DNA of 64,000 nt, from contig OZ253449.1 in NCBI GenBank assembly GCA_965261345.1, positions 832,001 to 896,000 on the forward strand. The letters run 5' to 3'. Positions 41,179 through 44,606 of the stretch are shown one piece after another. The position numbers and the translations under genes are program-made. The DNA is from Chloroflexota bacterium. Lineage in GTDB: Bacteria > Chloroflexota > UBA11872 > VXNJ01. Under the pieces are notes generated by a model that was not told where the DNA came from, searched no databases, and saw nothing but the letters and a program-made list of their open reading frames with translations. Positions within the stretch are counted from its first letter, which is position 1. Each line of letters opens with the position of its first letter.

Positions 41179-41298
41179 CTTGTATGTTGGCAATGGGTAG
41201 TCCGGGTGCAGCGGACCGCACAAATCTCGGTCCGCTTTCGCGGGACCGTTCACTAGCATGGGTCGCCGCACCCGGCTCCCGCGGCCAATTACCCGAAC
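41179..41298 (+). ncRNA. IS110 left end with bridge-RNA-like target-binding loop (copy A, truncated)
   Basis: Begins CT-TGTAT; stem CCGGGTGC/GCACCCGG encloses guide ACAAATCT, hairpin CGGTCC..GGACCG and guide CACTAG; homologous to 43272-43383. Confidence 0.75.
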
Positions 41299-43232
41299 GT
41301 TCGCGGTAGGAACACCGGTTACCCGGTGCCCCCCGCACGGATCCCGGCGTGCGCGTTAACGCACCGGGCTCTTAGCTTGAGTGTTTGACGGCAAAACGGT
41401 CGGCGGGCCATGGGTGGAGGATGGAGACGGTTGGGAGATGGGCAGTGCTCAATGCGCGCAGGCGCCCCCATGGGAATCGATCATGCTGCGACCGGCGGCG
41501 CAGGCTGCGTAACCACTGGCGCTCGAGTTCATATTTGAAACTCCTCAGGTACGTGGAGCTGGTTGGGACGGCGTAATAGCCGAGCCAGCCCCGCAGCACC
41601 AACCCGAGCCATTGCCCGGTCTGCGCGGGCGTCGTGCATGCGCATGCGTAGTCGTTCCTTGATCGCCTTCAGGGTGCGTCTGACGCGCTTGGCGATGGGC
41701 TTGCGTCCCAGTCCGAACTTTCCGTTGCTCATCGTCCGGCAGTAATGCGTTAGGCCGAGGAAGTCAAAAGTCTCCGGACGGCTGTCGTTACGCTGGCGGC
41801 GATTCTCGATCGCGTATCTGCCGAACTCGATCAGGCGGGTCTTGTGGGCTGCAAGCTCTAATCCGTACTCTTCTAGCCTGTCTCGCAAATCCTTTGCAAA
41901 TCTGACCGCATCGCTGCGGTACTCAAATCCCAGGACGAAGTCATCGGCATACCTGACGATGTAGACCTCGCCGCTGGCCCTTTTGGGTCGCCATTCCTTG
42001 GCAAACCATGAGTCCAGGACTTTGTGCAGGTACACGTTGGCAAGCAGCGGCGATATCGGCGCCCCTTGCGGTGTTCCCTGCACGCTGTCGGATAGTTCTC
42101 CGGCTTCCATTACTCCGGTGCTCAGCCATTTGCGGATTAGGCGCAGGACGCGGTTGTCTCCGATTCGCTCTCCCAGGAACGAGATGAGTCGCTCGCGGTC
42201 GAGATGGTCGAAGAAGCCTTTTATGTCGGCGTCAAGAATCCAGTTGACTTTTCTCCGTTCGATGGCGTAGGCCAGGGCGTCCAGCGCGTCGTGCGCTGAT
42301 CTTTTTGGCCGGAACCCGTATGCGAACCCGGCGAACTCCGATTCATAGATCGGGTCAAGGATCTGTTGACACACCGCCCGCTGCAGGATCTTGTCCTCTA
42401 TGGATGCGATTCCAAGCGCTCGCTTCCCGCCGTCCGGTTTGGGTATCGCTACCCGCAGGACGGGGGTCGCTCGGTATGCTCCTTTGTGCACGCGGTCTTT
42501 AAGGTCGAGAAGTTTCTCTTCCAGGTTTTCCTCGTACATCCTCCACGTGATCCCGTCGGCGCCGGGAGCGGCATTGGGTTTTAGCCCGTAGAACGCATCC
42601 CTTAGCGCGTCAAGGTCTATGTGGTGTAAGAGCGCGGTGAGTTTTCCCTCTGGGTTCTCTTTGGCGTGTTGCCGTACGCGTTCGGCTCCGGGTGACACGG
42701 GAACCCACCCCTGGGTGTAGTCCGTGCCGGTGCCTGGCGCGTTCCTCTTGCTTGCGGCCCTTTCCTCCGGCGGCTCCGCCGGGGTTTTACGCCCCATTGT
42801 TCGCCGCCTTCGCAGGTACTATGGCCGCATCAGACTTCTGCACATCGTGCATCATCGGCTACGGATACCTCCTTCCCGATGCGGCCCCGGATCTGCGAGT
42901 GAACCGGGGTAATGCGCAGATCTCCCAGTTCCCGGCCCGGGACTTACGTACGTACATGAGTTCTTTGACACCGTCGAGCCCGGCTGACGGCTGGCCATCT
43001 ATTGCCGCCGCCGGTGTTGCCTTCGACAAGATCAAGAGTCTCGGCGCTCGGATCGTCGACAAACCCGATGTTTCGGTGCTCCATAGCTCTGTCCGCACGC
43101 TCCGCTACCGACGCTTCACGGGTAACCTCGCGGTTACCCGCGCACGGCTCGCGGGCTGATGTGGGCTGGCTCTCGCCCTTCATCCCGGGAGACTTTCACT
43201 CCTTGTCCTGGTACCAGTTGGACTGGCTGTTC
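41299..43232 (-). mobile_element. group II intron (bacterial class E/F-like)
   Basis: Domain V GAGCCCGGTGCGTTAACGCGCACGCCGGGATCCGTGCGG and domain VI ending CCTACCGCGAAC at 41299; domain I motifs (GAGTGAAAGTC, GAGCCGTGCG, GAAGCGTCGG) near 43100-43210. 5' boundary approximate. Confidence 0.85.
41372..42797 (-). pseudogene. ltrA: group II intron reverse transcriptase/maturase, frameshifted in domain X, no endonuclease domain
   Basis: APGADG, IPKPDG, YGFRP, DADIKGFFD, GTPQG and YADD motifs. C-terminus continues in another frame (LRGWLGYY...LRRRSQ...LHPWP). Confidence 0.85.
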
Positions 43233-43271
43233 TGATCTGTTCGGGCGAGTACTTTCTTTTCGGGCTGTCCC

Positions 43272-44606
43272 CTTGTATGCAAATGGGAAGTCCCGGGTGC
43301 TAGGGCGCCTGTACCTTGGTCCATTGAGACCGTTTTAAAGCACGCTCGCCGCACCCGGATCTCCCGGCGCATAGACCCCGAACAATTGCTCGGTGGGCTC
43401 TAGACCCCGTATTCGCAAGGAAGGGCGTAGCGTCGGGAGTAACTATAGGGAGTTTTACATATGTGCGAGGACGTATATGTAGGCGTCGACGTTGCCAAAA
43501 ACACCGTCGATATCGCCCTCGGGCCCCAGGGCGAGGTCTTTACCCTGCCCAACTCTGCGGCCGGGTTCGGGGCGTTGATCAAGCTCTCGAGAACTATCTG
43601 GTGGCGCTGGTGGTCGCAGAGGCCACTGGCGGCTACGAGGAGCAGCTGCTCTCCGGGACGCCGGCTATAAGGTGGCGGTGGTAAATCCGCGCCAGATGCG
43701 CGACTTTGCCCGGGCGCTTGGGATCCTGGCCAAAACCGACCGGATCGATGCCCGGGTGATCGCCCGCTACGCCGAGGCGGTAAGCCCCCGGCAAGGGAGC
43801 GCAAGTCGCCCGCCGAGCGCGAACTGGCGGGACTGGTTGCCCGCCGCGGCCAGCTCATGGACCATCTCACCGCCACCGGCTGGGGAGGCTCCGCGTGTAC
43901 GTGCCGACATCAGGCGCGCCATTGCCGGACTGGGGCGCCGATCGCCACCCTTGACCGCGATATCGGCAAGCTGATTAAGGCCGACTCCGATCTTGCCACC
44001 CGCAGCGCGCTGCTGACCCGGTGCCCGGCGCCGGCCCGCAGCTGGCGGCAACCGCGATCGCCTACCTGCCCGAGCTTGGAACGGTGGACGAGGCAGATCG
44101 CAGCCCTGGTAGGGGTTGCGCCCCTGAACCGCGACAGCGGCGCGTATAGTGGCCGGCGAACGACCTGGGGCGGACGCTCAAGGGTCAGGTCGGCGCTTTC
44201 ATGTCGGCCCTGTCAGCCTCGCGCCACAACCCGGTGATCAAGGCTTTTTACGACCGGTTGGTGGAGAGTGGGAAACCCAAAAAAGTGGCGCTCACGGCTT
44301 GCATGAGAAAGCTGCTTGATCCTGAACGCGATGCTGAGGAACGGCGGTATTGGCGCGAGGAGTCCGCCTCGGGCTGAACGCCGGGCAGGTCCGATCGCTC
44401 TTGCGGGCAAGGTCCCTGGCGAAGCCATGCCCGGGATCGGGCTATTGCGGCGATTACGCATCCGGTTATCGCCTGTCGATCGGGCTGCGGTCACTATGAA
44501 CCGCGGTCGGGGCGCTGGATCCCGGGAGACTTTCACTCTATCCTCCCCTTTCTCCTGGACCCCTCTGACCCCACCTCTGCCGGAATTGACAATCAAGACA
44601 ATTGCT
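43272..44606 (+). mobile_element. IS110-family (IS621-like) element with both ends and a frameshifted recombinase
   Basis: Flanked by CT cores at 43272-73 and 44605-06. Recombinase pieces from ATG 43461: [45 protein letters not shown]. Confidence 0.85.
43274..43430 (+). ncRNA. bridge-RNA-like non-coding region (copy B) with target- and donor-binding loops
   Basis: Donor guide ACAATTGCT (43382-43390) is identical to the element right end (44598-44606); GCAAG (43415-43419) pairs with left end CTTGT with one G.T. Confidence 0.8.

Follow-up and report, generated by a model that had tools for sequence, protein, structure and literature searches.

In the parts of Durrant et al. (2024, PMC11208160) that concern its architecture, the bridge RNA of the IS621 type is described as the non-coding left end of the element, with two internal loops carrying guides of 8-9 nt and 4-7 nt. 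According to the same parts of that report, when the element forms a circle, a −35 box carried by the right end would meet a −10 box of the left end. As described in part of Hiraizumi et al. (2024, PMC11208158), IS621 recombination in vitro was supported when the target loop and the donor loop were supplied as separate RNAs. Among group II introns, RmInt1 of Sinorhizobium meliloti has its homing site inside ISRm2011-2 (PMC1802570, in part), and the consensus termini of this intron class are given as 5'-GUGYG and AY-3' in the main text of PMC3753933.

The window analyzed here is the whole stretch of 64,000 nucleotides from a Chloroflexota bacterium (contig OZ253449.1, positions 832,001 to 896,000). 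An initial annotation had read its interval 41179-43430 as two differently programmed bridge-RNA loops in tandem, split by a group II intron at the donor guide. The scaffold, the guides, and the intron are all real, but they do not form a single bridge RNA interrupted by the intron. Five mobile elements have piled up in the interval, which is not one device: it is an ordinary transposon graveyard in which two unrelated IS110-type elements, designated ISA and ISB, adjoin each other, one of them reduced to a stump, and it holds no two-headed guide RNA. The composite is very probably transposon wreckage, made up of ISA in the end of an insertion sequence (IS-X) and of ISB and the intron in another insertion sequence (IS3).

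The two left ends, copy A and copy B, were aligned column by column. The stems were conserved, and the difference lay in the two sides of the first internal loop, as expected from the initial annotation, which had reported a shared scaffold with different guides; both copies are IS110-type bridge-RNA target loops. A consensus fold of 11 left ends contained 31 consensus pairs. In this fold, 95.7% of the cells were paired, versus 35-44% when the partners were slid, and compensatory changes were found in 11 pairs versus 0-2 in the slid controls, the pairs being scored on the same alignment from which the structure was predicted. Inspection by eye and the minimum free energy (MFE) fold of ISB both showed an outer stem of the donor loop, which is absent from the consensus. 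Two internal loops with covarying stems, as in IS110 bridge RNAs, were thus present, of which copy A retains the first only. A non-coding end beside an IS110 recombinase gene was found for copy B and is missing locally for copy A. In the target loop, the 5' side carries the left target and the core, and the 3' side is complementary to the core and the right target. These left ends resemble those of the IS621 type, as far as the relevant parts of PMC11208160 describe them, in standing before a DEDD/Tnp gene, in their two loops, and in the complementarity of the 3' side to the core and right flank. On the other hand, they belong to other subfamilies, which have a distinct scaffold (CTTGTAT.., AGTCC, CCCGAAC); copy A has one loop and no recombinase, and copy B in the window is decayed. 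Neither copy matched an Rfam family at the gathering score. An Rfam hit at E <= 1 to sX15 on the minus strand (41188-41336) was taken as chance at 29.5 bits versus the required 55, as was a sub-threshold hit at E <= 1 to an L20 leader inside the intron.

IS-X (39538..41178, minus strand) is a decayed copy of an rve-type DDE insertion sequence and shows 90% identity over 1647 nt to a 1.7-kb element, which is represented by 8 near-full copies and fragments. An intact copy contains a 518-aa ORF (Pfam rve, E 6.6e-9). The last ~48 nt of IS-X in the window are cut off by ISA, which is inserted after ..ACAAAT-CT. Twelve IS-X ends were compared with the guides of copy A. The left target guide, CACAAATCT (41219..41227, plus strand), was identical at 8 of 9 positions to the IS-X sequence ending in the core CT, and this match held at all 12 ends, among them the end that copy A immediately follows. 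The right target guide, GTTCACTAG (41248..41256, plus strand), matched as reverse complement 7 of the 9 positions made up by the core and the next 7 nt (CTAGTGAGG); this match was found in 7 of the 12 ends, which are the uninterrupted ones. At two other loci, the missing IS-X tail AGTGAGGCAACGG follows immediately after an ISA-type right end (..GACACGGTTGCT). ISB was present at none of the 12 IS-X ends, and the two occupied ends carry ISA-type right ends.

Copy A (41179..41299, plus strand) consists of the core CT and the first 119 nt of the ISA left end, as judged by aligning and folding it together with 9 full left ends. Its target-binding loop (41202-41275) is complete, and of the donor loop it keeps the first bases (..CCCGAACG, 41292-41299); its MFE fold has a z of −4.07, and it is unique in the genome. 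The initial annotation had let copy A stop exactly where the donor guide begins. The break is indeed near this point, but in the alignment it lies one base inside the position where the copy B donor guide ACAATTGCT starts, and the empty sites place the edge of the intron on the copy A side at 41300 and not at 41299. At the locus, copy A is followed neither by a donor loop nor by a recombinase gene or a right end. A full ISA was found in the genome neither by DNA nor by protein, and the only ISA-type recombinase sequence in the genome is a 28-aa C-terminal remnant. Copy A is an orphaned ISA left end that lies in place, exactly behind its own target half-site in IS-X; as a target loop it is orphaned, since the genome no longer encodes the recombinase that belonged to it.

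The nearest full relative of ISA (G004, 76% identity) reads CCCGAACGGTTGCC at the break point, has a normal donor loop, encodes a 325-aa recombinase of its own, and ends on the right with ..ACACGGTTGCT. Therefore, native ISA probably continued with a normal donor guide. The closest relative of copy A (L002) has a 325-aa gene where copy A lacks a recombinase, and ACGGTTGC occurs in it both in the 5' side of the donor loop and in its own right end. The suggestion that copy A is a target-loop-only cassette does not agree with this in situ left end, whose relative has a donor loop and a 325-aa recombinase. Extrapolated past 41299 from the 76% relative and the right-end remnants, the intact ISA donor loop would read ..CCCGAACGGTTGCT.., and it would be followed by the recombinase gene, the right end, and the IS-X tail. 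Only ACG is left of the copy A donor guide, in agreement with the ISA-type right-end remnants ..CACGGTTGCT. The wreckage reading would not be compatible with a full relative of ISA in which ..CCCGAACG of the left end naturally runs on into TGATCTGTTCGGG.

ISB (43272..44606 from core CT to core CT, plus strand) is a member of the IS110 family with 7 copies in the genome. Copy B is its bridge-RNA left end (43272-43463, plus strand; bridge RNA 43272-43460), and the recombinase gene starts at 43461 and is frameshifted in the window. An open 319-aa frame is kept in 5 of the 7 copies. In an intact copy, the frame begins ~190 nt past the left end, and its product matches PF01548 (DEDD_Tnp_IS110, E 8.9e-25) and PF02371 (Transposase_20, E 1.3e-20). 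In the window, ISB differs by 13 small deletions and one 17-nt insertion; these indels are absent from the Logan contigs compared, which carry the intact multi-copy version, an absence that proves nothing either way. Copy B thus belongs to a decayed ISB copy. Its target guides are CCTGTACCT (43308-43316) and GTTTTAAAG (43332-43340). The left donor guide, ACAATTGCT (43382..43390, plus strand), is identical at 9 of 9 positions to the last 9 nt of the ISB right end (44598-44606), so that the 5' side of the donor loop carries the element's own right end and core. The left target guide agreed with the flank at 9 of 9 positions in 4 of the 7 copies and at 8 of 9 in one, and the right target guide at 5-7 of 9. 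The two copies in the IS3 5'UTR, including that in the window, fit the guides at only 4 of 9 and 4 of 9 positions. The agreement between guides and flanks, the identity of the donor guide with the right end, and the IS110 Pfam domains show ISB to be an independent IS110 element. In the ISB sequence, TTGACA precedes the core by 13 nt, and TATGTT follows it by 4 nt.

The sequence between the intron and ISB (43233..43271, minus strand) comprises the first 12 codons of IS3 orfA and part of the 5'UTR, and is the 5' exon of the intron. A total of 9 intron-less and 4 intron-bearing IS3 starts were compared, and the same sequence was found at the 9 intron-less and the 3 other intron-bearing ones. A reading of 43233-43271 as native ISA sequence was rejected since it matches the IS3 copies over its whole length. 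The orfA start codon is lost in the window copy, of which 39 + 57 nt are left. IS3 OrfA matches PF01527 (HTH_Tnp_1, E 5.2e-15), and an rve-type orfB was read by eye in one full copy. The rest of the IS3 5'UTR and the terminal inverted repeat (44607..44663, minus strand) are contiguous with 43233-43271 in the ISB-free IS3 copies, and the ISB-free site was seen at the intron copies c5 and c6 and at intron-less IS3 copies. All IS3 copies diverge after ..GCCGGCCA, and in the window a fragment of the gene hit by IS3 follows (44664..44876, plus strand; ORF 44316-44876), which contains the 72-nt tandem repeat D1 and is of a leucine-rich-repeat type, read from the translation alone.

A comparison of filled and empty sites placed the intron insertion point between CAGATCA and TCAACAAGC. 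The EBS1 loop (UGAUCU, in 43027-43036) and the EBS2 region (UCGGG, in 43060-43072) lie in domain 1 (43027..43072, minus strand). In the IS3 5' exon GTACTCGCCCGAACAGATCA, EBS1 pairs at 6 of 6 positions with AGAUCA and EBS2 at 5 of 5 with CCCGA. Furthermore, EBS1 varies among the copies in step with the 5' exon, being changed in c7/c8 and in c9. The regular homing site of the intron is after codon 12 of IS3 orfA, and only its 3' flank, copy A, is foreign. The EBS/IBS pairing that the initial annotation had put forward as a check is accordingly with the orfA exon and not with the scaffold.

The element between the two copies is an antisense group II intron, as the initial annotation had recognized. 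It is 1933 nt long (41300..43232, minus strand) and is copy c1 of a 9-copy family; its extent was defined by comparing IS3 sites with and without it and, at IS110 sites, by the reading frame. Ribozyme domains 1-4 were recognized by the covariance model RF02005, with a score of 141.9 bits (gathering score 49, E 4.5e-41) over model positions 1-225 of 225. In domain 4, a reverse transcriptase ORF of 422 aa (41529..42797, minus strand) matched Pfam RVT_1 (E 1.9e-36) and no other Pfam family at E <= 0.001. The MFE fold of the last 86 nt gave domains 5 and 6 (41300..41370, minus strand), with a 2-nt bulge in domain 5 and an unpaired UA 7 nt from the 3' end in domain 6; the Rfam D5-D6 family showed no match at E <= 1. 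The window intron starts with GAACAGCC and ends with CCGCGAA, and all 9 copies start with GAAC(A/G)GCC and end with CCG(C/T)GAA. These boundaries, which come from filled versus empty sites, depart from the consensus termini, and nothing on GAAC starts came up in a literature search on non-GUGYG termini, including parts of PMC3753933. The family is like RmInt1, as described in part of PMC1802570, in its homing site in an insertion sequence, its multiple dispersed copies, and the lack of an endonuclease domain (here only RVT_1 was found). It is unlike RmInt1 in its termini (GAACAG..GAA and not the usual GUGYG..AY), its lineages with different sites, and its strong mosaicism. The lineages use IS3 orfA, IS110 recombinase genes, or a 20-26-nt repeated motif.

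Informative sites in runs of at least 3 were compared between the window intron and the other copies. In alignment columns 11-398, all 96 sites were like the IS3-resident c5, and in columns 1495-1939, all 117 sites were like c3/c4. There were no informative sites between columns 398 and 1495, where a core of ~1.1 kb is identical in c1 to c6. Judged by these sites, the window intron is a chimera of two lineages. In the sister copy c2, the 5' exon is that of IS3, whereas a 140-nt homology (score 116) links the 3' exon to DNA lying downstream of an empty c3-type site at 25095; with these hybrid flanks, c2 is a precedent for flank exchange within this genome. Copy c6 carries c3-like patches although both of its flanks are IS3.

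A contig from an independent study (X8) spans 41255-41986, with 45 and 687 bases on either side of the copy A/intron junction; the junction is therefore not an assembly artefact. A second contig (X1) is identical over 41164-41328, of which only 29 bases are on the intron side. Of 21 genomes searched, only this one showed the junction, which was found in none of the 20 related genomes. The initial annotation had described a perfect 7-bp hairpin upon removal of the intron. Its arms, CCCGAAC (41292-41298) and GTTCGGG (43239-43245), were confirmed, but the loop is one base longer (G + TGATCT). This inverted repeat, which by itself serves no function, is the conserved IS110 scaffold motif CCCGAAC joined to the IS3 codons for Pro-Glu-Gln. 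In 2.39 Mb, 626 occurrences of CCCGAAC or its complement were counted, and a perfect 7-bp repeat this near both junctions would arise by chance, on a rough estimate, a few times in a thousand; a role of the 7-bp homology in junction formation is possible.

The steps can be ordered as far as can be told. In step 1, ISA evidently inserted in the IS-X end at ACAAAT-CT|AGTGAGG, a site that both target-loop guides specify. Elsewhere, in step 2, IS3 evidently landed in the leucine-rich-repeat gene, ISB, of a different IS110 subfamily, entered the IS3 5'UTR, and the intron entered IS3 in the sense orientation after orfA codon 12, at the regular homing site read by EBS1 and EBS2. In step 3, a second intron copy of the c3/c4 lineage may have come to lie antisense in the ISA left end at the first donor-guide bases, probably by ectopic retrotransposition. 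A crossover inside the ~1.1-kb core would then have fused both loci in the order IS-X, ISA stump, chimeric intron, IS3 start, ISB, IS3 end, with loss of the ISA donor loop, recombinase gene, and right end. Because the intron is chimeric and c2 has hybrid flanks, a crossover between intron copies best explains the junction, and we give about even chances to copy A having been joined to the intron in this way. Against the crossover, mosaicism is also possible via gene conversion without flank exchange, as in c6, and if ISA read ..GGTTGC, the ectopic 5' exon would in our own reading fit a c3-type EBS1 at 4 of 6 positions only. Neither a precursor allele (ISA intact at this IS-X copy, or the intron with an ISA 5' exon) nor, in this genome, the reciprocal crossover product was found. 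A single inversion between c2 and c3 was dropped as the flanks do not fit. Replication with a strand switch at the 7-bp repeat was rejected, since it would join copy A to the 5' end of the intron in sense, unlike what is observed.

The same nest might have acquired its junction by another route, which we consider doubtful: ISA would have carried an antisense intron in its recombinase gene at the G-K-P-K-K codons (the c7/c8 site), a deletion at short homology, between the donor-loop ..CCGAACG and a similar ..GAACG just ahead of the intron 3' end, would have removed the 5' part of the gene, and a later exchange would have replaced the intron sequence and its 5' flank. Family introns lie antisense at that codon position in IS110 genes four times (c7, c8, L012, and L015), a fifth, truncated intron adjoins an ISA-type right-end remnant at 1299454-1299507, and the L015 gene reads ..GGGAACG directly before the intron 3' end, close to the ..CCCGAACG of copy A. 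This route requires at least one event more than the crossover, however, and the last 440 columns of the window intron are c3/c4-like and only 78-81% identical to c7/c8. Moreover, the closest ISA relative has ..GAGGCC at that codon position and not GAAC. The first of two alternatives in the initial annotation was an intron that recognizes the bridge-RNA scaffold and homed into the donor loop of copy A, IS110 left ends being its regular target. The intron 3' end does abut the invariant CCCGAAC, the same sequence as in the part of the IS3 5' exon that contains IBS2, though here on the opposite strand, and one lineage homes into IS110 elements, but it does so in the recombinase gene. Since, among the 3' ends of 17 related introns (10 in this genome and 7 in relatives), a single one lies against an IS110 left end, the 5' exon in the window comes from IS3, to which the window EBS1 and EBS2 fit, and the inferred native ISA sequence pairs poorly with either EBS1 type, regular homing to the scaffold is very improbable. 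The outcome that the initial annotation had itself named beforehand as contrary is what was found: the introns home elsewhere, and the nearest ISA relative has a normal donor loop and its own recombinase.

Retention of copy A as a target-loop-only RNA, giving the resident ISB recombinase a second specificity for IS-X ends, would have a model in the separate IS621 target- and donor-loop RNAs that recombined in vitro (PMC11208158, in part). By analogy, copy A is a target loop without a donor loop and could in principle be a working module; the loop is intact and folds well (z −4.07), its stems resemble those of ISB, five ISB copies have open frames that could act in trans, and seven matching IS-X sites are free. 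Those RNAs, however, were engineered and were used in vitro together with their cognate recombinase; copy A arose by truncation, and this genome does not encode its cognate enzyme. It sits exactly where an ordinary insertion would put it, it is of a different subfamily, its closest full relative having a recombinase 51% identical to that of ISB, and ISB lies at the copy A target in 0 of 7 ISB copies and 0 of 12 IS-X ends. A simple scan of 40950-43500 revealed no sigma-70-like promoter. We regard a second specificity as extremely improbable, and would hardly expect the orphan loop to be transcribed, to load an ISB-type recombinase, and to pair in trans with the ISB donor loop. The chance is just as slight that, jointly with such transcription and loading, copy A might direct ISB copies, or rearrangements mediated by ISB, to the ACAAATCT|AGTGAGG sites that are still free at seven IS-X ends. 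If true, this would be natural guide sharing between IS110 subfamilies, arisen by accident. A mis-assembly across the repeated intron core has an almost negligible probability. Six copies with an identical core of ~1.1 kb invite chimeric joins, and the ISB indels of the window are absent from the contigs compared, but the X8 contig crosses the junction, the X1 contig matches 41164-41328 exactly, and a mis-join in the core would not give an exact junction at the last base of the intron.

Read as wreckage, the interval has little significance as a device. It is a natural example of bridge-RNA guides that can be read straight off a genome, with agreement between guides and flanks for three IS110 subfamilies in one organism. 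It also illustrates how group II introns and insertion sequences that home into each other scramble loci and yield orphan guide modules. For genome scans, it calls for caution, as the conserved scaffolds of two elements, juxtaposed by rearrangement, can mimic a composite RNA. Apart from this, the intron family looks active, with non-consensus termini, a homogenized core, and lineages homing into IS3 and IS110 genes.

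The locus is a graveyard of mobile elements, in which IS-X (an rve-type DDE insertion sequence), ISA (an IS110-type element), a group II intron, an IS3 element and ISB (another IS110 element) lie inside a leucine-rich-repeat gene. Reading of 40600-45200 and an Rfam scan showed a common scaffold in copy A (41179-41299) and copy B (43272-43463) and, as the initial annotation had observed, a group II intron between them on the minus strand (RF02005 match at 42959-43196, minus strand, 141.9 bits). The intron-encoded ORF (41529-42797, minus strand, 422 aa) has an RVT_1 Pfam domain, and folding of the final 86 nt of the intron gave hairpins for D5 and D6. 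The window comes from a genome assembled as a single contig of 2.39 Mb, so that other copies of every piece were available for comparison. The genome contains nine full intron copies (c1, in the window, to c9) and one fragment.

The flanks of the intron copies were aligned together with all places carrying the sequence found to the right of the window intron, giving 13 sites. Nine of them lack an intron and have, in the orientation of the intron, ..AAGTACTCGCCCGAACAGATCA|TCAACAAGCTCCGG.., which begins an IS3-family orfA (Pfam HTH_Tnp_1) and has the IS3 terminal repeat upstream. Since IS3 sequence flanks c5 and c6 on both sides, the inserted unit is GAACAGCC...CCGTGAA, and the reading frames at two insertions in IS110 genes (c7 and c8) are consistent with these ends. 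The window intron therefore extends from 41300 to 43232, between the two copies as first described and one base shorter than had been assumed. Its 5' exon (43233-43271) is IS3 sequence, not bridge RNA. The UGAUCU in a domain-1 loop, which Rfam aligns as a hairpin, is complementary to the exon AGAUCA, and UCGGG further upstream in the intron matches the exon CCCGA; in c7/c8 and c9 this loop varies in step with their differing 5' exons. Because these predicted guides fit both the IS3 exon and the empty IS3 sites, the intron is placed at its proper site, in sense orientation in IS3 orfA, and only its 3' flank is foreign.

Copy A is preceded by 44 nt that form the end of the 1.7-kb IS-X, an element with 12 ends in the genome. 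Seven of these read ..TTACAAATCTAGTGAGGCAACGG.. and continue for ~45 nt; the window IS-X breaks off at ..ACAAATCT, where the TGTATG.. of copy A starts. The loop guides of copy A are CACAAATCT and GTTCACTAG. The former agrees with the IS-X flank at 8/9 positions at 12/12 ends, and the reverse complement of the latter agrees at 7/9 with the CTAGTGA.. of uninterrupted IS-X ends. On this agreement between guides and flanks, copy A is the left end of ISA, placed where its own guides point. The missing IS-X tail is present at two other loci, with ISA-type right ends directly before it (..TTGACTTTTGACACGGTTGCT|AGTGAGG), and DNA and protein searches of the genome found nothing of ISA beyond copy A and these two right ends. 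The IS-X ends at C1:~185838 and ~655905 (C1 being the contig of this genome) read CT, TGTATGTT/TGCATGTT and GGCAA..: the start of an ISA-type left end runs into the IS-X tail at a common GGCAAYGG. Both ends resemble scars left by short-homology deletion of ISA copies.

Copy A was matched in 7 of the 41 genomes searched, its own included. The best match (76% identity) is a complete element in the related genome G004, with a left end reading ..GACCCGAACGGTTGCCAGGG.., a normal second loop, a 325-aa recombinase gene and a right end reading ..AACACGGTTGCT. Eleven left ends could be aligned throughout, and their consensus fold consists of two loop modules. In this structure, which was predicted from the very alignment on which pairing was scored, 95.7% of cells were paired versus 35-44% with slid partners, and compensatory changes were seen at 11 pairs versus 0-2. 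Copy A follows the family to CCCGAACG and then breaks off one base into the donor guide.

The element from 43272 on, ISB, is 1.34 kb long and has seven copies in the genome, five of them with an open 319-aa frame containing two IS110 Pfam domains. IS3 copies without it read straight through (..GTCCCCTTTCGTTGG..), and ISB has therefore simply inserted into the IS3 5'UTR, where it spans core CT 43272-43273 to core CT 44605-44606. Its first loop, with guides CCTGTACCT / GTTTTAAAG, agrees with the left flank at 9/9 positions in 4/7 copies and at 8/9 in one, and with the right flank at 5-7/9 in the same five. The second loop begins with ACAATTGCT, which matches the last 9 nt of the element exactly. 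The window ISB and one other copy are at the IS3 5'UTR site, with a poor guide match (4/9 and 4/9). Compared with intact copies, the window ISB has 13 deletions of 1-7 nt, a 17-nt insertion and only 12 substitutions, and the indels destroy both the open frame and, in part, the target loop's outer stem. This apparent decay, read from the assembly, is unconfirmed because the public contigs compared carry the intact multi-copy version. The 17-nt insertion, TCCCGGGAGACTTTCAC (44520-44536), is not in intact copies and is identical to part of intron domain 1 at 43184-43200, 1.3 kb away. At the right end of ISB TTGACA ends 13 nt before the core, and at the left end TATGTT starts 4 nt after it (44586-44606 and 43272-43283), so that a circular junction would make TTGACA-N17-TATGTT. 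An intact ISB at C1:41470-42826 has the same layout, and ISA-type right ends have TTGACT at the equivalent position. At the c2 sister locus (C1:113729-115763), with a 5' IS3/ISB flank like that of the window, only the first ~45 nt of ISB survive; they break off at the left target guide, and this is joined to the IS3 sequence ATTCCCTCTGG, similar to the guide of a further ISB variant (C1:142302-142531).

A proposal that the intron targets the bridge-RNA scaffold was not borne out: among the 3' ends of 17 related introns (10 from the present genome and 7 from relatives), only that of the window abuts an IS110 left end, four are in IS110 recombinase genes and the others are in unrelated sequence. 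The alternative proposal, that copy A gives a recombinase a second specificity, is mechanistically possible, since separate target and donor loops of IS621 are functional in vitro according to one report (PMC11208158). ISB was found at the target of copy A in 0/7 ISB copies and at 0/12 IS-X ends, which speaks against it, and a simple scan of 40950-43500 detected no promoter-like site before copy A. As for the 7-bp hairpin obtained by removing the intron, the CCCGAAC motif found in 8/11 aligned left ends supplies the left arm, the complement of the IS3 codons Pro-Glu-Gln, which every IS3 copy has, supplies the right arm, and each arm occurs many times without the other. The coincidence is uncommon, the 7-mer occurring 626 times on both strands of the 2.39 Mb; no mechanism using the hairpin was found. 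The component parts belong to known kinds, as new members, and the composite has no evident function.

The junction of copy A with the intron is real DNA, because two public contigs agree on it: one from an independent study (dataset X8) spans 41299/41300 with 45 and 687 bases on the two sides, and one possibly from the source sample (X1) matches 41164-41328 exactly. The intron family is a pronounced mosaic: alignment columns 399-1494 (~1.1 kb) are 100% identical in c1-c6, and 5' and 3' of this core the copies split into lineages with 65-70% identity. Strong gene conversion or recombination among copies is indicated by this pattern, with homogenisation during assembly polishing as a possible alternative. 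The window intron resembles c5, of the IS3-resident lineage, at informative sites in columns 11-398, and c3/c4 at 117/117 informative sites in columns 1495-1939. The 5' flank of c2 is IS3/ISB as in the window, but over 140 nt the 3' exon of this copy shows homology to the DNA after an empty c3-type site at 25095; judging from these hybrid flanks, intron copies at separate loci do exchange their flanks by crossover in this genome.

By analogy with c2, the likeliest origin of the window junction is a c3-type intron that would once have lain antisense in the ISA left end and then recombined with an IS3-resident copy. No precursor was found, and no reciprocal product in this genome; among 21 genomes searched, the junction pattern occurs in this one only. 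The c3-type EBS1 (exon-binding site) would base-pair with the ISA site, as inferred, at only 4 of 6 positions. Another route to the junction would be intron insertion at the G-K-P-K-K codons of the ISA recombinase gene, followed by short-homology deletion. That site is occupied by an intron four times, an intron remnant also adjoins an ISA right end, and ..GGGAACG precedes the intron in one relative. This route requires more events than recombination between the c3-type and IS3-resident copies.

All nine intron copies start with GAAC(A/G)GCC and end with CCG(C/T)GAA, which do not match the consensus GUGYG..AY. In this family (window 41300-43232 and eight others, e.g., C1:113729-115657 and 135869-137800), the RT ORFs look intact and the insertions are precise relative to empty sites. 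One lineage is antisense in IS110 recombinase genes, at G-K-P-K-K codons every time (C1:819310-821234 and 269286-271216, a remnant at 1299454-1299507, and loci L012 and L015 in relatives). IS3 and IS110 elements are homing places of introns in this genus, and IS3 and IS-X ends are those of IS110 elements. In the relative G003 (L016, C1:809710-809833), an intron 3' end is nested within the RT ORF of another copy, at the equivalent of window ~41750. The 20-nt motif TTGACAAAT.GTAGAGAGTC, the 5' exon of c3 and c4, recurs at C1:25095, 44515, 110151, 273042 and 816364 of the present genome, with differing flanks on both sides.
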